Made by a program: the position numbers and the translations under genes. A stretch of 64,000 nucleotides of DNA, taken from positions 64,195-128,194 of the forward strand of contig CP064973.1 of the NCBI GenBank assembly GCA_016699365.1, in the 5' to 3' direction. Source of the stretch: Candidatus Nomurabacteria bacterium. GTDB lineage: Bacteria; Patescibacteriota; Minisyncoccia; Phycocordibacterales; UBA9973. Positions 12,372-63,365 of the stretch are shown here, one piece after another. Positions within the stretch are counted from its first letter, which is position 1, and each line of letters starts with the position of its first letter. The notes under the pieces were generated by a model that was not told where the DNA came from, made no database searches, and saw nothing but the letters and a program-made list of their open reading frames with translations.

Positions 12372-14720
12372 ATGCAAAAAAGAAGAATAAAACAAGTTTT
12401 TCTGGTATCCGGATTAACAATCGGGTCTGTTTTGTTTGGAATATTTGTAGCTATTTTTATATTTCAAGGATCTGTAAGGGCTTTCACATCAGCTAAGGCT
12501 TTTGGTGAACAGCTTAGTATTTTAGGAGACAGGATACGCGGTATAGACAACGATGTACTCAGTGAAAATTTTATAAATAAAGACACTCTATCTACGGAAG
12601 AACTATCGCCAGTAGAAATAACGCTTGGAAATATAAGTGATGGAATGTACACACCTCCGGAAACAGGAAAAGTAATCCGCATAAATCTTGAGAGTATGGA
12701 GCTTACTCAATATGAAGACGGAAAAATAATAAAAAATATTCCAGTTCTATCAAAAGGAAAAACAGGTTCTTATTGGGAGACACCAGGAGGAAAGTATAGT
12801 GTTTTATATAAAGAAGAAAGTCATCTTTCAAGTTTTGGTAAAGTATGGATGCCATGGAGCATGCAATTTTTTGGAAACTACTTTATCCACGGATGGCCAG
12901 TGGATAATTCAGGCAAACCTCTAGCAGACATAGGATATTCAGGTGGATGTATAAGACTAGACACATCAGATGCAAAAGCTTTGTATGAATGGGCAGACAT
13001 AGGGACAACTGTTTCTATATACAGCACCACGAGCGAAGAACCAACTTCCGTAGGAGAATCATCTCCTTACTTTTTGAAAAATCCAAAACTACTACCAAAA
13101 GTCTCGGCTAGTGCATATATAGTAGGAGATGTTTCTTCGGGAGATATTATCTTGGAAAAAAATATGGATGAAGTCCACCCTATTGCATCTGTATCAAAAC
13201 TCATGACTGCACTAACAGCACTAGACGTAGTTCATCAACGCGGAACATCTACTGTATCAAAAAAAGCTCTTTCTACTTATGGAGAAAATGGTGGTTTTTA
13301 TATAGGAGAAAAAATAAAAAATAGCGATCTCCTGTTCCCTCTTCTTTTAGAATCTTCGAACGATTCTGCAGAAATAATTGCTGAACAAGTCGGGCGCAAT
13401 TATTTTATGCGCGCAATGAACACCAAAGCTTCTTCTATTGGTCTAATACAAACAAATTTTGATGACCCAAGTGGATTGTCAGAAAACAACATATCAACAG
13501 CTAGAGATTTGTTTAAGATGGCTAGATATATACACGAGTTCAAGCACTATGTATACGACATAACCAAGTTAGAAAAATATTCCAACGGAACTCATACATG
13601 GGTAAACACAAATAGATACCTGGGAGAAGAAAATTATGCTGGAGGAAAAACTGGTTACACAAATCCTGCAAAAGAAACGATTGTTGCACTATTTGATGTA
13701 CCTATATCAGAATTTGAAAATAGAACAATTGCAATAATATTATTGCAAAGTTCAGACAGATATGGAGATACAAATGAGCTAATTAGTTACTTAAGAAAAA
13801 ATGTATACAGAGGAGCCAACAGACCAATTGAGATAGTTGAAAATACAGAAGAACCAAGCAGAAAAGTCAGCTTAGCTTTTGGTGGAGATGTAATGCTCGA
13901 CAGAGGTGTAAGAAGTTCTGTAGATAGAAATTTTGCAGGAGATTATTCTAGATTGTTCGAAAATCTAATTCCCTTAAAAGAAGCGGATATAAGTTTCATA
14001 AATCTTGAAGGACCAGTTTCAGACACCGGCAACAATGTAGGAAGTAAATATTCTTTTCGTATGGATCCTAAAGTTTTAGATGTTATGAGGTATGCGGGCA
14101 TAGATATTGTATCTTTTGCAAACAACCATGTCGGCGACTGGAATAAAAGCGCTTTCAATGACACTCTATCAAGACTAAGAGAATCTGGAATAAAATACAC
14201 AGGTGCTGGAAGCAACCGATCTGTCGCAATAGAGCCAACAATAATAGAAAAAAATGGATTGAAAATCGGATTCTTGGGATTCTCTGATGTTGGCCCAGAT
14301 TGGGTAAAGGCTACAGATACTTCATCTGGAATATTGATAGCAAGCGATCCAGATTTGGAAAATATAATAAGAAACGCAAATCAAAAAGTAGATATACTAG
14401 CTGTGTCTTTTCACTGGGGTACTGAATATTCAGAACATAACGCGCGACAAAAAACTCTAGCTTACAAAGCAGTAGAAAACGGTGCTGAGTTAGTTGTAGG
14501 ACACCATCCTCATGTCATACAAGATACAGAGGAATACAAAGGAGCACTCATAATGTACAGTCTTGGAAACCTAATATTTGATCAATACTTCTCAGAGGAA
14601 ACAATGCAAGGCTTAATAGTGGAAGTCAGCTTCTCTGGAGACAAACTAGAAAGTTACCAAAAAAAACTTGTTAAATTGAATTCTTATTTCCAACCCCAAG
14701 AAATCTTGGATTACCCATAA
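12372..14720 (+). CDS. membrane-anchored tri-domain cell-wall enzyme: L,D-transpeptidase (YkuD) + D-Ala-D-Ala carboxypeptidase (S11/PBP5-like) + CapA/PgsA-type metallophosphatase
   Basis: 782 aa. N-terminal TM helix. YkuD motif HGWPV...GYSGGCIRLD. S11 motifs SVSKLMT (SxxK), SSND (SxN), GGKTGYT (KTG). C-terminal CapA-like blocks VSFANNHVGDW, LAVSFHWGTEY, GHHPHVIQ. Confidence 0.75.
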   Translation: MQKRRIKQVFLVSGLTIGSVLFGIFVAIFIFQGSVRAFTSAKAFGEQLSILGDRIRGIDNDVLSENFINKDTLSTEELSPVEITLGNISDGMYTPPETGKVIRINLESMELTQYEDGKIIKNIPVLSKGKTGSYWETPGGKYSVLYKEESHLSSFGKVWMPWSMQFFGNYFIHGWPVDNSGKPLADIGYSGGCIRLDTSDAKALYEWADIGTTVSIYSTTSEEPTSVGESSPYFLKNPKLLPKVSASAYIVGDVSSGDIILEKNMDEVHPIASVSKLMTALTALDVVHQRGTSTVSKKALSTYGENGGFYIGEKIKNSDLLFPLLLESSNDSAEIIAEQVGRNYFMRAMNTKASSIGLIQTNFDDPSGLSENNISTARDLFKMARYIHEFKHYVYDITKLEKYSNGTHTWVNTNRYLGEENYAGGKTGYTNPAKETIVALFDVPISEFENRTIAIILLQSSDRYGDTNELISYLRKNVYRGANRPIEIVENTEEPSRKVSLAFGGDVMLDRGVRSSVDRNFAGDYSRLFENLIPLKEADISFINLEGPVSDTGNNVGSKYSFRMDPKVLDVMRYAGIDIVSFANNHVGDWNKSAFNDTLSRLRESGIKYTGAGSNRSVAIEPTIIEKNGLKIGFLGFSDVGPDWVKATDTSSGILIASDPDLENIIRNANQKVDILAVSFHWGTEYSEHNARQKTLAYKAVENGAELVVGHHPHVIQDTEEYKGALIMYSLGNLIFDQYFSEETMQGLIVEVSFSGDKLESYQKKLVKLNSYFQPQEILDYP

Positions 14721-14785: not shown

Positions 14786-16993
14786 ATGAAAAATTTTTTA
14801 AAAGATCCAGAATATAACTCAATCAAAAGTATTTTTCTGGTTGTGTTTGTGATTGGAGTAGGTTATTTTATAGGTCAATTTGCAATAAACAGAAGCAATT
14901 ACCTAAAAGCACTAGTAAACCCAGAAGACGTAGCCACAATAAGTATAAATTTAAATTCAATTGGAGGAGCTGATTCTGTAGAACCAGGGATATATGGTAT
15001 TCATATGGCAAAGCTCTTAGATGAAGCCGGTGTTGCTGATGGATGGTTATCTACTATAGAAGACTTCACTAGTGACTTAGAGCCTCACTATGCCAGATTT
15101 TTTGCCGGAGGCGAAGTGAGTTACTATCATTTTAAGACTACATACCTAGAGACAGGCAGACTCTCTGCAGCTGAGATAGCAAGTCTTGCTCCTGGAAACG
15201 AAATCCGCGGAAATGGATTTATTATTGCGGACAGAGAGGACGAAGAAGCTAATGGGAACACTGGAGAACTAGACCAGCTTCTAGCAACAAAACCTAGATA
15301 TGGAAATCTATCTTATTTAGAAGGATTCCAAAATACAAAATCTCGTAATTTTATTAGAGATTACGTTGATATATTAGATGCAGGAAATTCTAAATCTATG
15401 TTTGTTCTAAACCTAAGATATTCAACACCACAAGCAGAATTGGAGAAAATAGATTTCTTGATAGAAGAGGGTGTAGAAATAATAGGCATCGAATGCGGCA
15501 ATGAAGCATACGCAAAAACTCACCCTTGGTACAACACAGGCAACCCAACGATAAATGCTCCTCTATCTGTAGAGGAATACTTAGATACTTGTGATACTTA
15601 TAGAGATCTAATACTTGCTTCACACCCTGGCATACCGTTTGCAGTTTCAGCTGCTCCAAAAAAGAATTTTGAAGAAGGAGCAGAATGGGAAGCTAGTGAC
15701 TTCAATACAGAATGGAATATTTCCCTGGCAACAAAAATGAACGAGCATGGGTATGACAATTACACCGTTCACTTCTACGCACCTTTCAATAGCTGTGAAG
15801 ATGAAGTCGCCACAGGAGATAGAGATTCTATATTTACATGTGGACTCGAAGAAATACGCGATCTACGAAATACAGTAGAGGGACCAAATGGAACAGTAAG
15901 ATTACCTGTAATATTTAGTTGGTATAAAGAAAATTTCCCAGGAAAAGATATGTGGTTTACTGAATGGAACATAAACCAAGATCCTCTAAATGGAACAGAT
16001 GCAAAATACGCAAACTCAATACTTCATGCTGCTTTTGTTACGAATGTAATGAATATTATAAATATGCAAAATGCATATAATGGAAACTTTATTCCATTTG
16101 CAAACTTACATACATATGTAACCGATGGCGGAAACGCAATGATAAATCTACATGTATCAAAAGGAGTTGGTAACAGCGAACCAGAGGATACTGGTGAATT
16201 TGTAAGACGAACACCGTACTTTGCTTATATGTCTATGAAAGAAATATTTCAAGACGACTACAAACCACTTGAAACTACATTTACAATAAATACTCCGGGA
16301 TTAGACCCAAATGACGTAACAATATATGGATATAAAAAAGATAATGGAGACATAGCATTGGCGTTTACAAATCTCACAAGTAAAACTTTACACATAGATG
16401 AACTCACAATCGACGGAGACGCCGTGGACTTAAATAGCTCTAGTGCAAATCTATATTCAATCGACGGAGACGCCAATTACGCAAGTAGAGGAAAGACTGA
16501 GTTCGCTGTAAATCCTGGACATGAGGTTACAATAAGAGAAAATGACTTCTATTCAAGTATCACAAATCTTTATATACCATCTTTTGGAATATCTACAGTA
16601 ACTATAAACACAGATATCGTAGAAGATAATCCTGGTTGTACTATACTGGAAAATATAACTGGAAACTGTGATGAAGATATCAATGAACCAGAAAACGATA
16701 CAGAAGCACCTACTATTGAATTAGCTGGACCTGCAGATAAATTCATCCTAAACGGAGCTACAACAGTAGTAGCAGCAAGCGCAGCAGACAACATCGGTAT
16801 ACAGAAGGTAGAGTTCTATTATGGCAGTACAGCGGATATGAAAAATCTAATTGCAACAGATGATACAGCTCCTTACAAATCTACGTGGAATACAGCCCAA
16901 TTACCTGTAGGTACATATAGAGTTGGAGCAAAAGCTTACGACACTTCTGGAAATACCACTTTCAGTAATTATGTGACAGTAAAAAAACAATAA
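14786..16993 (+). CDS. membrane-anchored putative glycoside hydrolase (clan GH-A-like TIM barrel) with C-terminal Ig-like domain
   Basis: 735 aa. N-terminal TM. GIECGNEAY and WFTEWN resemble the acid/base and nucleophile Glu motifs of clan GH-A enzymes. The C-terminal ~90 aa (…VEFYYGSTADMKNLIATDDTAPYKSTWNTAQLPVGTYRVGAKAYDTSGN…) is a typical Ig-like domain of secreted hydrolases. Confidence 0.5.
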   Translation: MKNFLKDPEYNSIKSIFLVVFVIGVGYFIGQFAINRSNYLKALVNPEDVATISINLNSIGGADSVEPGIYGIHMAKLLDEAGVADGWLSTIEDFTSDLEPHYARFFAGGEVSYYHFKTTYLETGRLSAAEIASLAPGNEIRGNGFIIADREDEEANGNTGELDQLLATKPRYGNLSYLEGFQNTKSRNFIRDYVDILDAGNSKSMFVLNLRYSTPQAELEKIDFLIEEGVEIIGIECGNEAYAKTHPWYNTGNPTINAPLSVEEYLDTCDTYRDLILASHPGIPFAVSAAPKKNFEEGAEWEASDFNTEWNISLATKMNEHGYDNYTVHFYAPFNSCEDEVATGDRDSIFTCGLEEIRDLRNTVEGPNGTVRLPVIFSWYKENFPGKDMWFTEWNINQDPLNGTDAKYANSILHAAFVTNVMNIINMQNAYNGNFIPFANLHTYVTDGGNAMINLHVSKGVGNSEPEDTGEFVRRTPYFAYMSMKEIFQDDYKPLETTFTINTPGLDPNDVTIYGYKKDNGDIALAFTNLTSKTLHIDELTIDGDAVDLNSSSANLYSIDGDANYASRGKTEFAVNPGHEVTIRENDFYSSITNLYIPSFGISTVTINTDIVEDNPGCTILENITGNCDEDINEPENDTEAPTIELAGPADKFILNGATTVVAASAADNIGIQKVEFYYGSTADMKNLIATDDTAPYKSTWNTAQLPVGTYRVGAKAYDTSGNTTFSNYVTVKKQ

Positions 16994-20083: not shown

Positions 20084-20980
20084 TTATTTTGTAATTTTTT
20101 CAATAGACTTAGCAAGTAGAGGCAGGATATCATCATATGTTTTGATATCTCCTATCTGACTTAAACTAAACCATTTTGCATCATCAAGTCCACCACTTGA
20201 AGTCAGCGCAAGCTCCTGATACGGTGCTTCAACCAAGAAGTAATGAACTTCTTTTCTGATCTTTCCTTTCTCAGGATGCGAAGCAATATACTCATTTTGC
20301 CCTAGCTTTTCTTTGACTACTATAGGCAATCCTACCTCGTCTTTAATTTCTCGAACAACAGCAACAGCCTCGTCTTCACCGTCCTCTACACCACCCTTAG
20401 ATAGAGTCCAGTAACCAAAAACATCATGTACAAGTGCAAAATATACTGCACCTTCGTGGCGAGCATATATAACAGCACCTGCCTTTTTTTCAGTAGGTAA
20501 TTTTGTTATATCAACAGGTGTGTCATCTTTTTTCTTTTTAGAAGTTTGATCCTTTCCCGGTTCTCCTATTTCTTTGTATACAGCACCTAAAACTCCGTTT
20601 ACAAATTTACTAGATGTTTCACCTCCAAAAGCTTTCGCAAGTTCAATTGCTTCATTGATTGCTACTTTAGGCGGGACTTCTTCTCTGTTACCAAATAAGA
20701 GCTCAGCTAAACCAAGTCTTAGAATATTTCTATCCACAACTGATATTTTATCAATAGGCCAATCTGGAGCAGCTTTAGTAATTATTTCATCTATTATTGA
20801 ACGCTTCTTTAGCACAAGTTCAGCTAGATTTTCAATAAAAGTAAAATCATCTAAGCCTGGACCAAATTCGCTTTCATTGCGCTTCAATATAGGGACGATT
20901 ATGTCGTCTTGTTTACCGTTGAAATCCCACTCAAAGAGTGATTGGAGAACTATTGATCTTGAAAGGTGCCTGTTTGCCAT
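20084..20980 (-). CDS. nusB: NusB antitermination factor fused to a C-terminal NUDIX hydrolase domain
   Basis: Residues ~1-140 match NusB (…PPKVAINEAIELAKAFGGETSSKFVNGVLGAVYKEIGEP). The C-terminal ~150 aa carry a Nudix box (SKGGVEDGEDEAVAVVREIKDEVG). Confidence 0.75.
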   Translation of the reverse strand: MANRHLSRSIVLQSLFEWDFNGKQDDIIVPILKRNESEFGPGLDDFTFIENLAELVLKKRSIIDEIITKAAPDWPIDKISVVDRNILRLGLAELLFGNREEVPPKVAINEAIELAKAFGGETSSKFVNGVLGAVYKEIGEPGKDQTSKKKKDDTPVDITKLPTEKKAGAVIYARHEGAVYFALVHDVFGYWTLSKGGVEDGEDEAVAVVREIKDEVGLPIVVKEKLGQNEYIASHPEKGKIRKEVHYFLVEAPYQELALTSSGGLDDAKWFSLSQIGDIKTYDDILPLLAKSIEKITK

Positions 20981-21041
20981 TTTGTTGTTTACAACTTTTT
21001 TTAATTTTTATATGAACGAAAGAACACAGTAAATCAAATTA

Positions 21042-21263
21042 CTATGCTTTCTTTGTTTTTGCCATTTTCTCGGCTTTCTTTATGGATTTTTTGTTAACCT
21101 CTAGTACCTTTCTACCTCTGTACATACCAGTTGTGGTGCATACATGGTGACGAAGGTGAGGAACTCCAGTTTCTGTATCAACAGAGAAAATGCGCGCTTT
21201 TAAAGCGTGATGTGAACGTCTGTTGGCGGTATGTGACCGCGTATGTCTCATTCGGACTACCAT
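21042..21263 (-). CDS. rpmF: 50S ribosomal protein L32
   Basis: MVVRMRHTRSHTANRRSHHALKA...GVPHLRHHVCTTTGMYRGRKV matches the L32 pattern. Confidence 0.8.
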   Translation of the reverse strand: MVVRMRHTRSHTANRRSHHALKARIFSVDTETGVPHLRHHVCTTTGMYRGRKVLEVNKKSIKKAEKMAKTKKA

Positions 21264-21293
21264 GTGGACGAGTATAGCATAGGGGTATATAAA

Positions 21294-21950
21294 TTACAAG
21301 ACTTTTTTCAAAAATGTCTTCCTGTGTATGTCTGTAATACCATATCTATATATAGCCTCATAGTGAGCTTTTGTCCCATACCCTTTATGCATATAAAAAT
21401 TGTATTTTGGGTATATTTTTGAAACCCTATCCATATATCTATCACGTGTGACCTTGGCACATATGGAAGCTAGAGCAATTGCCGGCTCTTTTTCGTCCCC
21501 TTTTATAATTGTTTTCTGACGGGCAAACTCTTTTGGCGCCTTGAGGCCACCATCGAGTAATACTATCTTATAATCTGAAGTCTTTAGTTTATAAATAGAA
21601 TTTGAAAGAGCTCTTTTGATGGCAGGAACTATACCTATAGAATCAATTTTAGCCGCAGATACGAGCGTTACCTTATAGTCACACTTCCCTTCTTTTTTCC
21701 ATTTTTTAATTACTTCAAACCATTTTTCCCGTTCTGCGTGAGACAACTTTTTTGAGTCTCGTAGTTTTAAATTGGTTTTTTTAACTAAAATTTTAAAATT
21801 CTTGTTTTCAATATCAAGCCGAAATACTCCAACTGCTACTGGTCCTGCTATCGGCCCTCTCCCTACTTCATCGATGCCGAAAATAGATTGCATGTAGTTT
21901 ATTATAGCAAAATAAAAAATCAGGTTTTTACCTGATTTTAAAATTATCAA
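21294..21950 (-). CDS. rnhB: ribonuclease HII
   Basis: GIDEVGRGPIAGPVAVGV motif. True start is probably the internal Met (MQSIFGIDEVGRG, near 21891). Confidence 0.85.
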   Translation of the reverse strand: MIILKSGKNLIFYFAIINYMQSIFGIDEVGRGPIAGPVAVGVFRLDIENKNFKILVKKTNLKLRDSKKLSHAEREKWFEVIKKWKKEGKCDYKVTLVSAAKIDSIGIVPAIKRALSNSIYKLKTSDYKIVLLDGGLKAPKEFARQKTIIKGDEKEPAIALASICAKVTRDRYMDRVSKIYPKYNFYMHKGYGTKAHYEAIYRYGITDIHRKTFLKKVL

Positions 21951-32764: not shown

Positions 32765-33739
32765 CTATTTTAATTCTCCAATCATCAATTCTGCCTTGTT
32801 GTCTATATCTGAAAGTTTTTTGTTAAAAATTTGCAAAAACTTTTCTGGTAAAAGTGCTTTAAAATTGTGGTCTCTGCTAAAATACAGCCCATTACCATCT
32901 CTTCCTTGAGAAAGAAAATATTTTAAATCAGAATATCCCGCTCCAAAATAAAACTCAATTTTATTGTCTTCAATAGTAACTGAAGATCTACCTATTATAT
33001 GCCTGCCCTCTTTATACCCTTCTCCGTGTTCAATTTTATCAGTAGTATCACTATTGTTGTATTCATAGAAAGCCTCCAAAAAAGCACCGTCTATCATATC
33101 TCCCAATTTATGATAAATCTCGCGGAGCTTTGGTTCTTTTGATTCTTTTATATTTTTTTCAAAAACAGTTTCTTTGTGGTATATACCTGTTGGATACCTA
33201 ACCGGCCAATTTTCTCTACCTTCTGGCGTATCCACAGACAATTCAAACAAATCTCTATCTATAGAATCCACTCTCCAATGCAAAATAGTTGAAACACCTC
33301 GCAGGTTTTGATAATCAGGGTTTTCTATATTCAAGGTTTGAATCAATTCATTTTTCATCTTCTTTAGATCTTCAATATTTTGATGAACCAATTCCTCTGA
33401 CGAACTCATATCGAAAACTTCATCTGTATCAGAAAAATTCTCCTGCATTTCTGATATATTTGAGACTCCTCTTTCAGCCAGCAATTTCTTTTTTTCTTCA
33501 TCTTCAAAAAGAGGTAGTAAATTTTCCAAAGCATTTTTAAATTTTACCCTGTTGCCTGCAAGCTCAGCTCTTTTGGCTTTTATATCTTCAATAAGTTGTA
33601 GGTACTGGGTCTTTTGCTCTTCCAGCTTGGACATATCTTCTCTAACTTCAGATAAAATATTTTCTTTTTTAGTTTGAATTACTTCTTCTTCTGCTGTCTT
33701 AAAGCTATTTAGTTTTCCAAAAATCGAATTTTCGTTCAT
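32765..33739 (-). CDS. hypothetical protein with N-terminal coiled-coil, inserted between pheS and pheT
   Basis: 324-aa ORF with no recognised motif. Confidence 0.45.
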   Translation of the reverse strand: MNENSIFGKLNSFKTAEEEVIQTKKENILSEVREDMSKLEEQKTQYLQLIEDIKAKRAELAGNRVKFKNALENLLPLFEDEEKKKLLAERGVSNISEMQENFSDTDEVFDMSSSEELVHQNIEDLKKMKNELIQTLNIENPDYQNLRGVSTILHWRVDSIDRDLFELSVDTPEGRENWPVRYPTGIYHKETVFEKNIKESKEPKLREIYHKLGDMIDGAFLEAFYEYNNSDTTDKIEHGEGYKEGRHIIGRSSVTIEDNKIEFYFGAGYSDLKYFLSQGRDGNGLYFSRDHNFKALLPEKFLQIFNKKLSDIDNKAELMIGELK

Positions 33740-33761: not shown

Positions 33762-34502
33762 TTAAAACTGATTTATTCTCAAATCTCCCTGATAAAGGAA
33801 TCGTACATCTGGAATATTGTGTTTAATCATTAAAATACGATCAAGCCCTCCACCGAATGCGAAGCCTTGGACTTTTTCCGGATCTAGCCCTGCGTTCCGT
33901 AAAACATTTGGGTGGAGCATTCCACCTCCCATCATCTCGAGCCACTTGCCGTTAAACTTTGCATGTACTTCCACTGACGGCTCAGTAAACGGAAAGAAGC
34001 TCGGACGAAACTGTATCTCAGTCTCAGAGCCAAGCATGGTCTGGTAGAATTTAATCAAAACTGCCTTCATATTTGCGAGTGTAATATTTTCTCCAATCAT
34101 AACTCCATCTATCTGATGAAATTGTGCTTCGTGAGTGATGTCTGTTGCTTCGTTACGAAAAGTTTTTCCGATTGCGATATATCCAGCTTCCTTTATTCCA
34201 TCTTTTGCCATTTTTTCAATCATACGCATAGAGACACTTGTCGTGTGTGTACGCAAAACTGGACGAGAGCTTCGTTCGCCACTTTGTGCTTTTGCAATCT
34301 CCTCAGGAGTTTGCTTTATCCAAAAAGTATCTTGCATGTCGCGCGCTGGATGGTCTTTTGAAACATTTAGTGCATCGAAGTTGTACCATTCGTGTTCAAG
34401 TTCCGGCCCAACAGCCATTTCAAAACCGAGCTCTGAAAAAACCCGAATTGCATCTTCCGCAAGGAGTGTCATTGGATGAAGTTGTCCTTTAGATATCTGC
34501 AT
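33762..34502 (-). CDS. pheS: phenylalanine--tRNA ligase alpha subunit, catalytic core only
   Basis: 246 aa. Class II motifs (FRNEATDITHEAQFHQIDG, FRPSFFPFTEPSVEV, GFAFGGGLDRI). Begins at the position equivalent to E. coli residue ~100, so the N-terminal helical domain is absent. Confidence 0.85.
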   Translation of the reverse strand: MQISKGQLHPMTLLAEDAIRVFSELGFEMAVGPELEHEWYNFDALNVSKDHPARDMQDTFWIKQTPEEIAKAQSGERSSRPVLRTHTTSVSMRMIEKMAKDGIKEAGYIAIGKTFRNEATDITHEAQFHQIDGVMIGENITLANMKAVLIKFYQTMLGSETEIQFRPSFFPFTEPSVEVHAKFNGKWLEMMGGGMLHPNVLRNAGLDPEKVQGFAFGGGLDRILMIKHNIPDVRFLYQGDLRINQF

Positions 34503-34908
34503 AAGCTTGTTTTAAAACTTCCGTACCTGCAATTATATCTTCATTGCTATAGTCATTTACATTATTGAACATATCTACAAGATTGTTCTGATCAGTCATA
34601 AAATCTTCGACAGTAGACATCGTATTCAATGTATCTTTATCACCGAGACCATCCTCTGACACAGATTCAAGTTTTGACACCATTCTCTCTGCTAAATCTT
34701 TTATTGTTGAATATGCTTCTGTTCCTAAATCTGTGTGTAATGTCTCTATCATACCTCTGCAGAAAATAACTAATTTTTTCAGATCTCTTATGTGTGATTC
34801 TATAGAATTCTCCATATCACTCACTCCATCATCTTCGAAAAAGTCCTCTCTGGGTTCACTGGGTTTAGTATCGAAATTATTTTCTCTAGGCTTACCAAAT
34901 GGGGACAT
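34489..34908 (-). CDS. acidic hypothetical protein overlapping the pheS start by 14 nt
   Basis: 139-aa ORF, acidic and helical-looking. Could be a detached N-terminal PheS domain or an unrelated small protein. Confidence 0.35.
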   Translation of the reverse strand: MSPFGKPRENNFDTKPSEPREDFFEDDGVSDMENSIESHIRDLKKLVIFCRGMIETLHTDLGTEAYSTIKDLAERMVSKLESVSEDGLGDKDTLNTMSTVEDFMTDQNNLVDMFNNVNDYSNEDIIAGTEVLKQAYADI

Positions 34909-34911
34909 AAA

Positions 34912-35187
34912 TTATACGCGTGAGATTAATAAATAAATATTATTACCCTTGTACATCAATGTAAACTGATGGTTTTCATTATCTTCAAACTGAGCACTCT
35001 TTTTATCATGAGCTTGAGCAAAAAATACTTTTGCCTCAAGAGGTTCAATTTTATTGTCCAAATAGTTTATACCGTCACGAATATGCCTGTCTTCGCTTTC
35101 GTATTCAACCTTTATTCCGTGAATATACTCGTATTTAACCATACTAGCGATTATAGCAAAAAATGGGCTCGAAATGCTATACTTCAA
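34912..35187 (-). CDS. hypothetical protein
   Basis: 91-aa ORF directly downstream of the tail-fibre-like gene. Confidence 0.3.
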   Translation of the reverse strand: MKYSISSPFFAIIASMVKYEYIHGIKVEYESEDRHIRDGINYLDNKIEPLEAKVFFAQAHDKKSAQFEDNENHQFTLMYKGNNIYLLISRV

Positions 35188-35322
35188 GCATATGAAAAAG
35201 CGTTATATTTTCTTGGTAATATGCATCTTAATACTATCTGCCATAGGGTTCTATTTGGGTAGATTGGACGAAGAAAGAAGAAAAATTGATGTCTTTTCCC
35301 TACCTAGTAGACTTGATCTATA

Positions 35323-35352
35323 AAAAAACACCCCGCAAGTATGGGGTGTTTT
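35323..35352 (-). terminator. rho-independent terminator
   Basis: acacccc-gcaagta-tggggtgt hairpin flanked by A/T runs. Confidence 0.55.
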
Positions 35353-35354
35353 GT

Positions 35355-36614
35355 TTAATTTTCTAAAAGAATTTTTAGTTTTATAACTTCTTCTTCTGTA
35401 AGACATGTGTCACCTACACACAATAATTCTGTTTCGATTTTTGGAGTAGTGATTTTTTCGTTTTCAATTTTCTCGAATCTGGAAGCAAGATCAGTAAGAC
35501 TGCCAACAATATATGGAATCAAGCCACTCATAGAAATACGTTTCTGGTTATTTTCTGTAACTACAACCTCTGGTAATATCGCCTCAACTTCCTGAGCAAT
35601 AAATCCAGATGTTTTGTTTTCTTTATCGGATTCATTTTTCCAATTGTATTTGACGGGACGAAGATTTTTTATAATATCCAAAGACTCACCACTTGATATA
35701 CTTTCAATATTTTTCTTCAAATTAACATCTGATGTACAAGTGATTCCACCTGCAACCGCCGGGTTTATAGAACATGTCCCGCTTGTATTTGTAAATGTTG
35801 CCACATCTAAAGTTCCAGTCTTTTCTACATCAAGAGGAGTCTCTGGAGTTGTATCTCCAATACCAACATTTCCATCCGCGTCTACCACCATTCTAGTTTG
35901 CAAGATAACAGATCCCCGTCCGGTTGTTCGAAAGAAGAGCCCTGTTCCCCATGCACTATCTGAGAAAGTTTCTGCCGCAATAACACGCATACCTGCAGTT
36001 GTAGAAGGAGCAAAAGCGGTTGTTCCGTATCCAAGTCCTGAGAATTCAGCAAGAATGTCATTGTTTTGAACAGGTAAAGGAGAAATTCTGGTTCCACGAG
36101 CAGCACGGCCACCAAAAACAGTTTTTGTGGTAAAAGTTGGAGATGTACTAAACGTGTCAGCAACTATCTCAACATTTTGTCCATCATTTGCAACTTCAAA
36201 TTCATATGTTGGATTTGATAGACCAACACCTATGCGGTCATTTACACCATCAATAAACAAAAGATCATTTTCATTATCAGATTTTATTCTGATATTTTTT
36301 GCATCCCCAATGTCATTTAAAGTTAAAGTACTAGTTAGTGCATCGTATGAAAAAGGATAATTTCCACTTACTCCACCCACACCCAAAGATCCTGTAAGTG
36401 TATTTCCTACTACAGTAAGTGGTGATGACGGAGAGTTTGTACCAATACCTAGATAGTTAAGTGTGTCGTTCCAAAAAAAGTTCAAATTATCTTGGCCTGT
36501 GTTTTTACCTACTGGATTAGCAAAAACAACAGACCCTGGAGTCAGGGCGGCATTTGTATTTAAATATGGAACAAAAACTATAAAAGCAATAAATAAGTAA
36601 GCAAACTTTTTCAT
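35355..36614 (-). CDS. secreted phage-tail-fibre-like protein with C-terminal intramolecular chaperone (peptidase S74) domain
   Basis: 419 aa. Signal peptide (MKKFAYLFIAFIVFVPYLNTNA). Repeated IGIGT/IGVG..P..L.V fibre-like motifs. C-terminus SDVNLKKNIESISSGESLDIIKNLRPVKYNWKNESDKENKTSGFIAQEVEAILPEVV matches the auto-cleaving chaperone domain of phage tail-spike/endosialidase proteins. Confidence 0.6.
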   Translation of the reverse strand: MKKFAYLFIAFIVFVPYLNTNAALTPGSVVFANPVGKNTGQDNLNFFWNDTLNYLGIGTNSPSSPLTVVGNTLTGSLGVGGVSGNYPFSYDALTSTLTLNDIGDAKNIRIKSDNENDLLFIDGVNDRIGVGLSNPTYEFEVANDGQNVEIVADTFSTSPTFTTKTVFGGRAARGTRISPLPVQNNDILAEFSGLGYGTTAFAPSTTAGMRVIAAETFSDSAWGTGLFFRTTGRGSVILQTRMVVDADGNVGIGDTTPETPLDVEKTGTLDVATFTNTSGTCSINPAVAGGITCTSDVNLKKNIESISSGESLDIIKNLRPVKYNWKNESDKENKTSGFIAQEVEAILPEVVVTENNQKRISMSGLIPYIVGSLTDLASRFEKIENEKITTPKIETELLCVGDTCLTEEEVIKLKILLEN

Positions 36615-36675
36615 AATCTATATATAATAAGCCAATAATGAACACATACTGTCAGTAAATGTGATCAATGTCAAC

Positions 36676-36996
36676 CTATTTAAACTCAAAAAATATCTCT
36701 TCAAAGTTTTTTATTTTCCCTGTTTTTGGATCTACATCTATTCCCTCTTTTTTATAAAGAGCCATTCGTTCTTTTCTGTGCTTGTCGTCTATCCATACTT
36801 TCCCACCAGCGTAGACTATCCTATGCCATGGGATATTCTTCACATCTTCATCGTATGCTTTACCGAGGATAGTAGTAATACTCTGACTTGCCATCGGCCC
36901 CGCACCACAAGCACGGGTAATAGCTCCGTATGTAGTAACTCTACCTTTTGGTATAGAGAGTGCGGCTTTCAAAACACGTTCAGAAAATGTAGACAT
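36676..36996 (-). CDS. alkyltransferase-like (ATL) protein / MGMT-fold DNA-binding protein lacking the active-site Cys
   Basis: 106 aa. O6-alkylguanine-DNA alkyltransferase C-terminal fold with PWHRIV in place of the PCHRV motif (Trp replaces the catalytic Cys), typical of ATL damage sensors. Confidence 0.7.
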   Translation of the reverse strand: MSTFSERVLKAALSIPKGRVTTYGAITRACGAGPMASQSITTILGKAYDEDVKNIPWHRIVYAGGKVWIDDKHRKERMALYKKEGIDVDPKTGKIKNFEEIFFEFK

Positions 36997-59254: not shown

Positions 59255-59297
59255 CGAGTTTTCTCGATGTTTTTATTTTTAGAAATATATACTTTGT

Positions 59298-59402
59298 TCT
59301 GGCGACTACCTACTTTTGCCCTAAGACTATCATCGGCACAACAGCGCTTAACTTCTTTGTTCGGAATGGAAAAAGGTGTGACCACTGCGTCAAATCACCA
59401 GA
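59298..59402 (-). rRNA. rrf: 5S ribosomal RNA
   Basis: Minus strand TCTGGTGATTTGACGCAGTGGTCACACC...CCGAACAAAGAAGTTAAGCGCTGTTGTGCCGATGATAGT...GTCGCCAGA aligns with bacterial 5S (CCGAAC...GAAGTGAAAC...GCCGATGGTAGT). Ends pair as helix I. Confidence 0.8.
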
Positions 59403-59937
59403 ACAAAACATATATTTTTTCTATGGAACGAAATGTGTATTGAAAAACACCTCGGCAGGTACGACGGTACCGTACGGAGAAAATTTCTAGCAAGAAATTT
59501 TTGTGTGTTTTGAAATATACATGAGTGTATATTGTATGTGATTTTCAGATTTCCTAATAGGAATCGAATAATTAGTACTTCTCGGCTCAACACATTACTG
59601 TGCGTACACCTAAAGCCTATCAACGTGATCATCTCTCACGGTTCTCAAACGATTCCTTATCTTAGGGGGGGCTTCCTTCTTAGATGCTTTCAGAAGTTAT
59701 CCCTTCCCGACATAGCTACCGAGCAGTCCATTTGGTAATAGAGCTCGTACACCAGAGGTCAGTCCACTCCGGTCCTCTCGTACTAGGAGCAGCGCCCTTC
59801 AAGAATCAACGAGCGCAGTAGATAGGAGACCAACCTGTCTCACGACGGTTTGAACCCAGCTCGCGTACCTTTTTAATTAGCGAACAGCTAAACCCTTGGC
59901 AGCTTCTCCACCGCCAGGATAAGGTGAGCCGACATCG

Positions 59938-60299
59938 CTGTCGATTTATCTCAAGAAAAATAAAAAACTTTTCAATCTTTCTTGAGAGTCTTCTGTCACC
60001 AGAAGGATCGGACTATATCTTCATCCTTTCATATAAATATGATTAGGAGATTGGCGTTTAGTCTCTGAGGATTCTTCATGTCTTTTGTAAAAAAGATTTA
60101 GAAGTCTTTCCTGCTGATTGTCTCAACATGCATAATTTTTTAAAACCACTCAGTATATTCTTTCGAATTGCTGTTTGGGTATATGCATTTAAAAGAGAGT
60201 TCCAGCATTTGGCCAATTTTTTGTATCTTTTATTTTGCTATCTACAACAAATATAAAAGACGGCTAATAATATCTCTATCATGGCACCCCGATATGTTA
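59938..60299 (-). mobile_element. group I intron (362 nt, ORF-less) in 23S rRNA domain V (E. coli ~2500 region)
   Basis: Exon sequence ...GGAGTTCGGCACCT | [insert] | CGATGTCGGCTC. 5' exon ends in U, insert ends in G. The insert contains S-element AAGATATAGTCC (plus 60010-60021, rc) and R-like TCAGAGACTAAACG. Confidence 0.75.
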
Positions 60300-60521
60300 A
60301 GGTGCCGAACTCCGCCGTCGATATGAACTCTTAGGCGGAACTAGCCTGTTATCCCCGGAGTAGCTTCTATCCGTTAATCTTCGGCCGCATCTAATGCGTA
60401 CCATCGGTTCACTAGGTTCTGCTTTCGCACCTGCTCGAGATGTCCCTCTTACAGTCAAGCCAGCTTGTGCCCTTACACTATCGGCACGATTTCCATACGC
60501 GCCTAGCTGACCTTAATAAAC

Positions 60522-60562
<41 letters not shown>

Positions 60563-60869
60563 ACCCACCAGATACTGTCTCTCTGTGTTTTTGCCACAGG
60601 GATTAGAATATACATGTCACAAGAATGGTATTTCACTGACGAGTATTACACAGCCGAGACCGTGCACATAACCTCTCCCATCTATGCTACGCAGGTAAAA
60701 CGTATATTCAATATCAAGTTGTAGTAAAGCTTCCGGGGTCTTTTCGTCTATCTGCGCTTAACCGGCATCTTCACCGGTATTGTATTTTCACCGAGCTATT
60801 CCCCGAGACAGTTCTCCAGTCATTACACCATTCGTGCGCGTCGGAACTTACCCGACAAGGTATTTCGCT

Positions 60870-61075
60870 CTTCTATACCTAAGAAGGACTCTATCTTCAT
60901 CCTCTCTTTCGAGGTGGGATGCTTGACGCTGGTCTCTCGTTAGTCAAGTTTGGACCACATATCATTACTGACATGTAGGTAGCTTTCGAATGATTTAATA
61001 ATTTTTTAATTTAATTGTTTACCTTTTTCTACAACAGTCCCAGTCCTTTCACATACAACCGAAGTCATATGCGAA
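60870..61075 (-). mobile_element. small group I-like intron (206 nt, ORF-less) in 23S rRNA at the GGTCCTAAGGT|AGCGAAAT site (E. coli ~1917 region)
   Basis: Conserved exon junction GGTCCTAAGGT ... AGCGAAATaCCTTGTCGGGTAAGTTCCGAC interrupted by a 206-nt AT-rich insert containing AAGATAGAGTCC (S-like) and GAGAGACCAGCG (R-like). Exon ends in U, insert ends in G. Confidence 0.6.
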
Positions 61076-61110
<35 letters not shown>

Positions 61111-61961
61111 CAGGGCTTATATCAGTCAGCTTCTCCCTACCCGAAGGCAGAGAGAAACCGCCGATATTTGACCTTCTCGCATTGGTCAGGTGTCACCCCC
61201 TATACATCCTCTTACGAGTTCGCAGGGAGCTGTGTTTTTGGTAAACAGTTGCCAGAGATACTTTCGCTGCGCCCCCCATAATGGTGAACTACAATATAAA
61301 TACTGAAGTCACCATTATGGGGGGAAGCCTTATTCCGAAGTTACGGCTGCTTTTTTGCCGAGTTCCTTGGGGAACACTCACTCGTTCGTCTTGGTCTTCT
61401 CGACCCGATCACCTGTGTTGGTTTGCGGTACGGTTTCTGTTCTGTTATGCTTAGAAATTTTTCTTGGAAGCGTGCTTTGTAAAATTTACATGGGCGAACC
61501 CACATATTTATGCTCTACTTGGATGTCGCTTTTACGCCAGTTTCCGGATTTGCCTAGAAACCACCCTCATAGCACAAACAGAAATCCAATAATCTGCTCT
61601 ACATACTACCCTCCGTCCTTCCATCGCACAGAAAAGAAGTCATGGAATATTAACCATGTGTCCATCACGTTCGGCTATCGCCATCTGCTTAGGACCGACT
61701 AACCCTTGGCTGATCAACATCGCCAAGGAAACCTTGATCTTTCGACGTGCAGGGATCTCACCTGCATTGCGGTTACTTGTGCCAACATTCTTACTTCGAC
61801 ACGCTCCAGCATGGGTCACCCCTTTGCCTTCAACGCAGAGTCGAATACTCTCCTACCACTCCATATTTCCTCAGAAATATGAAATCCTCAAATTCGGTAC
61901 AATGCTTAGCCCCGATTATCTGCGGCGCGGAATCTCTTGATGAGTGAGCTGTTACGCTTTC

Positions 61962-61993
<32 letters not shown>

Positions 61994-62572
61994 TCATTGT
62001 CGAAGAAATTCCACATCCTTGGTTTGCACTTAACATTGATTTAGGGACCTTAATTAGAGATCTGGGCTGTTTCCCTTTTTACTGACGGAGCTTCGCCCCC
62101 GTAGTCTAACTGCTGCGCTTTTAACTCTTGGTATTCGGAGTTTGATAGATGTCGCGAGATTGCTCCCTGTCGAAATCTTCCAGTGCTCTACCCCCAAGAG
62201 GAACGCACAACGCTAGCCCTAAAGCTATTTCGGAGAGAACCAGCTATTACCAGGTTCGATTAGCTTTTCACTCCAACCCACAAGTCATCCGAGAGTGTTA
62301 AACGGCTCACCGGTTCGGGCCTCCAGTGTGATTTCTCACACCTTCACCCTGCTCATGGGTAGCTCACCTGGCTTCGGGTCTTATGTATACTACCAATTAC
62401 GCGCTATTAACACTTGGTTTCCCTGCAGCTCCAGTCTTTTAAAACTTTAGCTAAGCAGCATACATAAACTCGTTGGCTCATTCTTCAATAGGCACGCCAT
62501 GGCGGACCCGAAGGCCCGCTCTGACTCTTTGTAAACATATGGTTTCAGGTCTATTTCACTGTCCTTTCGGAC

Positions 62573-62611
<39 letters not shown>

Positions 62612-63365
62612 ATCTCTACATGTATTTAGCCTTGCCGGTTAGTTCCGGCGGATTCCCTCAAGCTATTCGTGTCTTGAGGTACTCAAGAATGACAACAAAA
62701 GAGATATATTAATTTCGTGTACCGGGCTATCACCGTCTTTGGCGTTGCTTTCCAACAACTTCTACTATCAATACATTTTGTAACTCTTTACGTAATAAAA
62801 CGTCGTTATCACCTTACAACCCCGATTAATAATATCTTGCGACATTATCATTCGGTTTGGGCTCTTTCCATTTCGCTCGCCGCTACTTCGGAAATTTTGT
62901 CCTTACGGACTTTGTTTTCTTTTCCTCCAGGTACTGAGATGTTTCACTTCCCTGGGTATACTCTTTTTGATTAATCAAAAAGTTATTGAGGTTTACTCAA
63001 TAGGGTTTCCCCATTCGGAGATCTTCGGATATATCGGTTGCTAGGCACCTCCCCGAAGCTTATCGCAGCCATGCTACGTCCTTCATCGCCATGTAGAGTC
63101 AAGGCATCCACCATATGCTCTTAATTTCCTATTAGGAAATCTAAAAACCACATACTCACTAAATACTCTCTCCGGAATATTTAGTGTTTTGAATTCATAC
63201 TAAAACCAAAATCCAACCGCTTGGATAATATCAATATCTAGTATGAATTCACTCTGTTTACGACACGACTTAAAAGACCCCATGTTCTAGATAACCTAGA
63301 ACAAAAAGATTGTATGCCGTAACAGAATTCAGTTTTCAATGAGTAATCGTCCGGTAAATTTTTGA

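Follow-up and report, generated by a model that had tools for sequence, protein, structure and literature searches.

A probable cellular S74-matured fibre protein of the MAT-like class encoded beside pheS in a Nomurabacteria genome

How ultrasmall CPR bacteria recognise their hosts and attach to them is largely unknown, and a gene for a protein resembling a phage tail fibre in the chromosome of such an organism raises the question whether it belongs to a virus or to the cell, and what the product binds. The gene lies in a 64-kb stretch of Candidatus Nomurabacteria DNA, called the window below, in which the ORF list and translation gave a protein of 419 amino acids encoded at 35355..36614 on the minus strand. 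A first-pass annotation had described this protein as stand-alone and similar to phage tail fibres, a description borne out by the ORF itself and by Pfam, PHROGs and Foldseek searches. Exactly the same 419-aa protein carries the name 'tail fiber domain-containing protein' at NCBI. The evidence presented here indicates that it is very probably a cellular, non-viral, S74-matured fibre of the class of the Bdellovibrio mosaic adhesive trimers (MATs).

The C-terminal module, ascribed earlier to the S74 type, matches Pfam family PF13884 (Peptidase_S74) with E=2.6e-17 and 63.3 bits against a cutoff of 22, residues 295-351 being aligned to model positions 1-57 of 58. This intramolecular chaperone/autoprotease domain spans residues 295-352 (35559..35732, minus strand). 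The SDxxxK dyad can be read directly from the translation as T-S295-D-V-N-L-K300, with the predicted nucleophile Ser295 at 35730..35732 and the predicted base Lys300 at 35715..35717, both on the minus strand. The motif is invariant among 12 aligned orthologues, and across 42 homologues the serine is kept in 38 and the lysine in 36. The predicted fold of the domain resembles solved chaperones (Foldseek, 4UW8 E=1.6e-8; 7DC3 E=1e-5; 3GW6 just E=0.1), and Ser295 aligned to the equivalent position in the MyRF ICA chain (7DC3). The model is that of a monomer with a mean pLDDT of 74, in which the N-terminal 110 residues are poorly predicted; block means are ca. 79-95 at residues 111-260, 56-62 at residues 261-300 and ca. 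80-90 at residues 301-380. The protein matches 30 PHROGs families at E<=0.1, with tail or tail-fibre annotation in 21 of 25 among the matches listed, and some of these alignments extend N-terminally to residue ~64. No NCBIfam model matches the protein, and a sub-threshold Pfam match to AIM24 (E=0.04) was disregarded.

At the other end, hydropathy predicts a signal peptide of residues 1-22 (MKKFAYLFIAFIVFVPYLNTNA before A23; 36549..36614, minus strand). Residues 1-21, which consist of MKK, 15 hydrophobic residues and NTNA|A, form the sole hydrophobic segment of the protein, and values of KD15 >1.6 were obtained solely in windows beginning at residues 1-7. The orthologues retain the positive n-region and the small residues at -3/-1, while the signal sequence itself drifts (18-43% identity). 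By this heuristic assessment the segment fits a Sec/SPase I signal, in agreement with the signal peptide proposed earlier. It is followed by a conserved N-terminal fibre module, residues 23-70 (36405..36548, minus strand), delimited by orthologue conservation. Across five orthologue pairs this module shows 74-91% identity; its pN/pS (0.07-0.21) is lower than that of any other region, and it also occurs within a phage tail fibre (L014, 55% identity) and within giant cellular fibres.

The next segment, residues 71-125 (36240..36404, minus strand), is variable: two of the orthologues (L001 and L003) have it exchanged for unrelated sequence (16-18% identity) between flanks that are >74% identical, and model confidence is low across it. 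The distal beta-rich fibre/tip module, residues 126-294 (35733..36239, minus strand), was assigned from conservation and from homology to Bdellovibrio Bd1334, and is 82-91% identical in every orthologue pair. The repeated fibre motifs that had been noted before were found in three copies of the pattern [ILV]G[ILV]Gx2-4Px3[LFIM]x[VIL], which can be summarised as (I/V)G(I/V)Gxx(x)PxxxLxV. Copy 1 (LGIGTNSPSSPLTV, residues 55-68, 36411..36452) lies inside the N-terminal module; copy 2 (residues 128-141, 36192..36233) and copy 3 (residues 250-263, 35826..35867) lie in the distal module, all on the minus strand. A Cys281/Cys293 pair sits immediately upstream of the predicted cleavage site and is kept only in the orthologues and in CPR paralogues. 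Residues 353-419 (35358..35558, minus strand), the C-terminal part of the fragment that would be released, are predicted to form a long helix (362-385), a beta-hairpin with Cys399/Cys404 (ETELLCVGDTCLTEEE) and a terminal helix. The LCxGxTC motif of this region is common to the CPR paralogues (an 875-aa protein of L001, P0208, L011 and P0060) and is missing from distant S74 proteins.

The window belongs to the core chromosome, and the genomic context is that of a cellular gene. The flanking genes are those named by the first-pass annotation, pheS (33762..34502; PF01409, E=1e-84) and an ATL-type gene (36676..36996; PF01035) in which PWHRI replaces PCHR. The rest of the window is of housekeeping character (among its genes rpoB, SMC, dnaE, thrS, gyrB, pheT, a UvrD-like helicase and rRNA). 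Pfam and PHROGs searches found no phage, integrase or tailocin gene within the window, and none of its ten unidentified ORFs matches a phage structural gene in either collection, so that the placement outside any prophage stands. A six-frame hmmsearch gave no paralogue of any part of the fibre elsewhere in the window. The GC content of the gene is close to the window average (z = -0.2). Sequence inspection and a pattern scan located an intrinsic terminator, a hairpin followed by a U-run, at 35325..35352 on the minus strand, starting 3 nt past the fibre stop codon; the hairpin folds with a dG of -15.6 kcal/mol (z = -4.6), and none of 200 shuffled sequences folds as well. This terminator of its own was counted toward an independent transcription unit, cellular rather than viral. 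Orthologues with 62-79% identity adjoin pheS in five other genomes, and the chromosomal position is stable across all six diverged genomes. A dN/dS of ~0.12 relative to the L004 orthologue points to purifying selection on the gene, which has a chromosomal, vertically inherited context.

Two small acidic ORFs that follow the gene had been noted as well. One, of 139 aa, is indeed acidic (pI 4.2); the first is more likely a 76-aa ORF (34912..35142) than a 91-aa one, and its acidity is slight (pI 5.7). Neither was retained as functionally linked to the fibre: the two ORFs are cut off from the fibre gene by the strong terminator hairpin, and they are found together beside it in just one of five related loci, which rules them out as conserved partners. 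The 139-aa ORF was also considered as the detached N-terminal arm of a split PheS, an idea that arose as relatives carry a PheS of 377-379 aa. It was rejected: the long PheS proteins are single chains with a C-terminal FDX-ACB domain, the L006 locus has a 245-aa PheS without an ORF of the 139-aa type, and the ORF itself has no PheS-N match and just 29% identity to its L004 counterpart. Sub-threshold matches of the 139-aa ORF to the type III secretion protein SctI (E=0.0026, 17.9 bits against a cutoff of 39) and of a 324-aa ORF to the Bep BID domain were disregarded.

Among proteins of known structure, the closest relatives of the 419-aa protein are MAT fibres of Bdellovibrio. MATs have been shown on the surface of the predator, and for one of them prey glycans are the ligand; self-cleavage by the S74 domain was demonstrated for Bd3182, where it is blocked by S782A (Caulton et al., Nat Microbiol 2024, PMC10769870). 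The best PDB sequence match is Bd1334 (phmmer to 8OML, E=1.6e-8), which is also matched by fold (Foldseek, 8OML E=1e-13; also 8ONF, 8ONC and 8OND). By fold, Bd1334, Bd2439, Bd3182 and Bd2133 ranked first; T5 pb1 including its chaperone and MyRF ICA came after them. Alignment of the distal module to the Bd1334 fibre body with hhalign gave a probability of 95.8% (E=7e-9). The fibre body is homologous to solved MAT bodies, and a trimeric state is predicted for it. As in the S74 subgroup of the MATs (e.g. Bd3182; for the body, Bd1334), the gene is chromosomal and not part of a phage, and the product has a signal peptide, a beta-rich fibre body of the trimeric type, VGIGTxxPxxxLxV-type loops and an S74 cap with SDxxxK; there are several paralogues per genome, and the middle segment is exchanged in mosaic fashion.

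The differences from MATs are also clear. All 21 MATs of strain HD100 carry a conserved domain, beta-rich and ~130 aa in length, right after the signal peptide (PMC10769870). Comparison with the full-length Bd1334 orthologue (L008:1998-5357) by BLASTP and hhalign aligned residues 53-264 of the Nomurabacteria protein to residues 736-1006, left the first ~150 residues of the orthologue unaligned and revealed no such domain in the 419-aa protein. The Bdellovibrio gene came from a genome scan; a protein homologue search with a 100-aa Bd1334 fragment as query gave no match. Whereas MATs measure ~600-1,900 aa, the protein described here has 419 aa and resembles the final ~270 residues of a long fibre joined to a signal peptide. 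It has extra cysteine pairs, beside the cleavage site and in the released tail, and it comes from a monoderm CPR bacterium instead of a Gram-negative predator, where it is known from its sequence and a model.

Homologous S74 domains occur in other settings. The L-shaped tail fibre pb1 of phage T5 (4UW8/4UW7) and the CIMCD of the K1F endosialidase (3GW6) share the S74 fold, the Ser-Lys motif and a beta-helical fibre directly upstream. However, the Nomurabacteria gene is located outside any phage genome, its product has a Sec signal in place of the virion-attachment N-terminus of phage fibres, and in sequenced phages tblastn picks up only its S74 region. The eukaryotic MyRF ICA (7DC3) is a homologous S74 autoprocessing and trimerisation domain (phmmer E=0.009, Foldseek E=1e-5), but in a wholly different context, where it frees a membrane-bound transcription factor.

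These relationships suggest how the protein may mature and work. The precursor would be exported via Sec by its N-terminal signal. The C-terminal S74 chaperone would then align three chains and nucleate the folding of an intertwined beta-rich fibre, after which the Ser295/Lys300 dyad would cut just before Ser295 and release a C-terminal fragment of 125 residues. Cleavage would expose a new tip ending in C293-T294, probably stapled by Cys281/Cys293. By analogy with characterised family members, the mature product, a short fibre, would comprise three chains of 272 residues each, sit at the surface of the monoderm cell or close to it and serve for binding, with a glycan or another surface feature of a partner organism as the most likely target. 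Overall, a cellular, trimeric, S74-capped MAT-like fibre that serves as an adhesin-type binding device is the explanation that we favour, with moderate confidence. The idea of a domesticated fibre acting as adhesin was already put forward in the first-pass annotation, and it was reasonable, although the precedent was not named there: the Bdellovibrio MAT fibres, being the best structural and sequence matches, provide direct experimental precedent that makes the role plausible.

A specific role in adhesion to a host is more tentative, and we place it somewhat short of even chances. The tip is nearly invariant among the orthologues, unlike receptor-binding proteins engaged in an arms race, and such a tip would fit a housekeeping or self-directed ligand too. 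Elements for anchoring to the cell were sought in the 419-aa protein and not found (no sortase motif, no second hydrophobic segment, no MAT N-domain); the mature fibre could therefore be released instead of displayed. It also speaks against such a role that the essential adhesins published for CPR belong to different types (type IV pili, and proteins with VCBS, dockerin or FnIII domains). To our knowledge Nomurabacteria have no cultured representative, so that their host-dependent lifestyle is itself deduced.

The same observations bear on the possibility that the protein is structural or secreted and directed to the cell's own needs, for example as a fibril of its own envelope, an S-layer-associated spike, a cohesion or biofilm factor or a free lectin, with no recognition of a partner. 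A tip and N-terminal module that stay almost invariant while the genes are 62-79% identical overall are what a conserved, possibly self, ligand would lead one to expect; the missing anchor domain, the location amid core housekeeping genes in all genomes examined and the use of the same module in giant surface proteins of many bacteria point the same way. Against this, the only cellular relatives studied by experiment, the MATs, act on prey, and S74-capped fibres were enriched in predators and epibionts in the MAT survey (PMC10769870); we regard a self-directed function as unlikely. Still less probable is a secreted or surface polysaccharide-degrading enzyme of the tailspike depolymerase type, matured by S74 as endosialidases are and cutting host capsule or cell wall. 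Endosialidases and further depolymerases of the tailspike type carry S74 caps (the Pfam family has the name 'Chaperone of endosialidase'), and there are matches to a PHROGs hyaluronidase family (E=7e-5, solely over the S74 region) and, weakly and by fold, to a depolymerase from a phage (8OPZ, E=0.03) and to a hyaluronidase from Streptomyces (4UFQ, E=0.35). However, neither Pfam nor NCBIfam identified a catalytic domain, non-enzymatic fibres are matched far more strongly (E=1e-13 to 1e-5), and much of the mature part, which is just 272 residues long, is fibre repeat common to non-enzymatic shafts.

A leftover or component of a mobile element, be it the tail-fibre gene of a prophage, the fibre of a tailocin or a gene recently acquired from a CPR-infecting phage, would account for the PHROGs tail-fibre matches, for the N-terminal module in a real phage fibre (L014, a true phage locus in which a lysis cassette follows the fibre gene) and for a fold and domain architecture common to hundreds of BFVD phage fibre predictions, which align over 350-400 columns with E down to 3e-19. 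Yet the gene has kept its place in six diverged genomes under strongly purifying selection and with native composition, surrounded by no phage, integrase or tailocin gene in the window, and 50,697 phage genomes searched by tblastn matched the S74 module alone, at <=43% identity. Sheath, tube and baseplate genes were found neither in the window nor in any orthologous locus, and the predicted Sec signal, which virion and tailocin fibres do not need, is incompatible with assembly in the cytoplasm. The tailocin fragment offered earlier as an alternative, like the prophage reading, was rejected on these grounds, and we consider a mobile-element origin of any of these kinds highly improbable.

The protein is thus a short addition to a known class, cellular S74-matured trimeric fibres, and not a new type of system. 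The expectation of undescribed biology was not upheld: the protein had already been named by NCBI, it has >10,000 cluster-level relatives, and a characterisation of S74 fibres of cells appeared in 2024 (PMC10769870). MAT-like fibres of the S74 type have already been listed for other epibiotic or predatory lineages, namely Micavibrio and Omnitrophica (PMC10769870). Since the class, the chemistry of its maturation and its occurrence outside phages are all established already, the advance would be incremental. The fibre body ties a Nomurabacteria lineage to an adhesin system experimentally characterised in Bdellovibrio; we found no report in the searchable literature linking S74-capped fibres to CPR. 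The candidates published so far comprise type IV pili along with a small number of Saccharibacteria adhesins that contain VCBS, dockerin or FnIII domains. Should the fibres turn out to mediate attachment, the present protein, being small and conserved and having a single module, would serve conveniently as a model in studies of structure and ligand, and as a marker from which host range could be predicted in metagenomes. It is a doubtful, speculative extension that CPR/Patescibacteria use families of S74-matured trimeric fibres as main host-recognition devices, in parallel to the Bdellovibrio MATs, with the minimal 419-aa fibre, retained beside pheS across Nomurabacteria, as a core, anchor-less adaptor whose near-invariant tip binds a conserved host-envelope glycan and whose N-terminal module docks onto another surface structure of the epibiont.

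The fibre-body module is present in 10,090 cluster representatives, many of which are giant CPR proteins. Giant 'tail fiber domain-containing proteins' of other CPR bacteria that end in S74 (Paceibacterota L011, at least 2,471 aa; Daviesbacteria L013, 1,774 aa; Nomurabacteria P0208, 1,070 aa) are built from the repeat module of the 419-aa protein, have its Cys pair ahead of SDxxxK and bear export or membrane signals, and L011 and P0208 also share the LC..TC tail after the S74 domain. They repeat the module many times and add other domains (collagen-like; HTH with a TM anchor), whereas the 419-aa protein, with roughly one and a half modules, is the minimal form. Export signals are likewise found on the CPR paralogues P0208, P0060 and the 875-aa protein of L001. 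The 1,070-aa P0208 is probably a second fibre paralogue in the source genome, which would then hold a fibre repertoire, as is the case with MATs; a cluster-mate of this paralogue adjoins another S74 fibre gene, upstream of rpsL. Several distant homologues of the fibre protein carry a precomputed PF26696 annotation.

The fibre gene (35355..36614, minus strand) encodes a polypeptide of 419 residues, and the feature singled out in the first-pass annotation, a stand-alone secreted tail-fibre-like protein, is real and was correctly described. The sole hydrophobic segment is the N-terminus (MKKFAYLFIAFIVFVPYLNTNA followed by A), a putative export signal with Sec/SPase I layout. The repeated fibre motif is present in three copies (residues 55-68, 128-141 and 250-263), and the S74 module expected at the C-terminus was found with Pfam as Peptidase_S74 at residues 295-351 (E=2.6e-17, 63 bits vs a cutoff of 22). 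This domain starts with T-S295-D-V-N-L-K300, i.e. the SDxxxK Ser-Lys motif of the autoprotease family, which shows no variation across 12 aligned orthologues; among 42 diverse homologues the catalytic positions hold Ser in 38 and Lys in 36. It is well supported by homology that the protein would be exported, that the S74 cap would fold and trimerise the fibre, and that the cap would then cut itself off at Ser295. NCBI lists an identical protein as 'tail fiber domain-containing protein', on a contig of 705,143 bp.

The best sequence match in the PDB is a non-phage protein, Bd1334 of Bdellovibrio (8OML/8ON4, E=1.6e-8, residues 165-264). An AlphaFold2 monomer model (mean pLDDT 74; block means of ~79-95 over positions 111-260 and of ~80-90 over 301-380, with the first ~110 residues poor) gave the Foldseek order Bd1334 (E=1e-13), Bd2439, the chaperone-bearing fibre pb1 of phage T5 (4UW8, E=1.6e-8), Bd3182, MyRF ICA (7DC3) and Bd2133. 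The Bdellovibrio proteins are mosaic adhesive trimers (MATs), chromosomal trimeric adhesins that carry a signal peptide and are displayed on the predator; 13/21 have a C-terminal S74 domain containing SDxxxK, Bd3182 was shown to cleave itself, and one MAT binds a prey glycan (Caulton et al. 2024, PMC10769870). Fibre residues 53-264 align to residues 736-1006 of a full-length Bd1334 orthologue (L008:1998-5357, 1,120 aa; BLASTP and hhalign, probability 95.8%, E=7e-9), whereas nothing in the protein aligned by either method to the conserved MAT N-terminal domain, and the defining MAT feature is therefore absent. By analogy the protein would work like an S74-type MAT, but the most fitting description is the final ~270 residues of such a fibre joined straight onto a signal peptide. 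Its N-terminal module (residues 23-69) is also present in a true phage fibre (L014, 55% identity), behind which lies a lysis cassette, and in giant cellular fibres, and is therefore a generic fibre segment and not an obvious anchor.

Likeness to phage proteins extends further. At E<=0.1, 30 PHROGs families match the protein, with tail or tail-fibre families making up 21/25 among the matches listed and some alignments reaching back to residue ~64; predicted phage structures in BFVD match the entire architecture with E down to 3e-19. A tblastn search of 50,697 sequenced phage genomes detected the S74 region alone, at <=43% identity. The first-pass annotation had offered a tailocin-like fragment as an alternative, while stating that no phage structural genes lie nearby. 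The latter holds for the 64-kb window, both for the named genes and for ten unnamed ORFs searched with Pfam and PHROGs. The window is ordinary chromosome, with rpoB, trmD, SMC, RNase III, dnaE, thrS, gyrB, pheT, pheS, a UvrD-like helicase with PD-(D/E)XK nuclease, a 23S rRNA gene (59553..63134, minus strand) interrupted by a group I intron (59989..60265, Rfam RF00028, 80 bits), and 5S rRNA directly downstream (59297..59402). Reading the gene as part of a prophage or tailocin is effectively excluded for this locus. In GC content the fibre gene does not stand out from the window (z = -0.2).

The possibility of a decaying prophage gene was likewise rejected, since regional conservation does not match it. 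Fourteen orthologues were found, at 62-85% identity to the protein, and pheS adjoins the fibre gene in 5/5 readable loci, the second neighbour being variable (an ATL or a rhodanese gene). In five orthologue pairs, amino-acid identity is 74-91% in the N-terminal module (24-70), 82-91% in the distal module (residues 126-294), 64-67% in the S74 domain (295-352) and 50-63% in the C-terminal tail (353-419); the middle segment (71-125) is replaced outright in L001 and L003 (16-18%). The predicted released S74 fragment and tail are therefore less constrained than the fibre. Against L004, the closest relative, dN/dS is ~0.12, with synonymous sites almost saturated. The regional pattern is the one seen in a cellular gene that is passed on vertically and shows some mosaicism.

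The fibre-body module is abundant: when the fibre body alone (residues 24-294) was run with phmmer on 1.84 billion cluster representatives, 10,090 of them matched at E<=1e-3, of which 1,350 also passed E<=1e-10. Many are proteins of 1,000-4,800 residues with the module repeated up to 32 times, and 5 of the best 10 of the 10,090 carry an S74 C-terminus. The protein is a short new representative of a known class, the cellular S74-matured trimeric fibres. Members from the Patescibacteria lineage (CPR) include a Paceibacterota fibre of at least 2,471 aa (L011), a Daviesbacteria fibre of 1,774 aa (L013, 2571..7895) and the 1,070-aa Nomurabacteria paralogue P0208, which is probably encoded in the same genome as the fibre gene; a cluster-mate of P0208 adjoins a further S74 gene, immediately upstream of rpsL-rpsG-fusA. 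A Cys pair right before the predicted cleavage site is common to CPR members and an LC..TC hairpin in the predicted released tail to all except L013; the distant S74 homologues compared lack both. The L013 fibre has at its N-terminus a MerR-like HTH segment plus a transmembrane helix, after which come collagen-like GXY repeats; it exemplifies a membrane-anchored version. In a related Paceibacterota genome (L015), two neighbouring S74 fibre genes are followed ~7 kb further downstream by a diversity-generating-retroelement-like pair (bAvd and reverse transcriptase, 20345..21689).

A role as adhesin for a partner organism, as the first-pass annotation had suggested, is plausible given the example of the MATs and the way of life presumed for the organism; this reading is weakened because the fibre has no anchor and its tip is near-invariant. 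The fibre may instead have a self-directed structural role, while an enzymatic one is less likely. According to the survey in PMC10769870, S74-type relatives occur in Micavibrio, Omnitrophica and other lineages; it names none from CPR. In the literature searched we found no paper linking S74 fibres with CPR, and the CPR adhesins described to date are of other types. The protein has modest value as a lead on CPR-host attachment.

A stable hairpin with U-run begins 3 nt past the fibre stop codon (dG -15.6 kcal/mol, z = -4.6), which makes the fibre gene a transcription unit in itself. The upstream gene (36676..36996, minus strand) was correctly identified as alkyltransferase-like (ATL), with PWHRI replacing the PCHR active site. 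The 61-bp spacer separating ATL from the fibre gene contains a perfect TTGACA hexamer (36668..36673, minus strand); no good -10 box was found at the usual spacing after it, nor a clear Shine-Dalgarno before the fibre ATG.

Downstream, on the minus strand, lie a 76-aa ORF (34912..35142; 91 aa with an upstream TTG start) without family match in Pfam, PHROGs or NCBIfam, and an acidic 139-aa ORF (34489..34908, pI 4.2). Both accompany the fibre gene only in L004 and are missing from L001, L003, L005 and L006; neither ORF is a conserved companion of that gene. The 76-aa ORF and an L004 ORF of equal length at the equivalent position share ~85% identity, and the 139-aa ORF shares 29% identity with its L004 counterpart, vs 77% for the fibre. 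The 139-aa ORF overlaps the start of pheS (33762..34502, minus strand; only 246 aa, without the usual N-terminal arm) by 14 nt, as in L004. The pheS-pheT spacer insert differs between genomes: in the window an acidic 324-aa protein without hits (32765..33739, minus strand), a 74-aa ORF in L004 (3598..3822) and a 23S_rRNA_IVP gene in L006 (4789..5145). L001, L003 and L005 have a single-chain PheRS instead (core and FDX-ACB, 377-379 aa). Elsewhere in the window, a 782-aa protein (12372..14720, plus strand) combines YkuD L,D-transpeptidase, S11 D,D-carboxypeptidase and PGA_cap in one chain, next to a 735-aa protein (14786..16993) ending in a Big_7 Ig domain.
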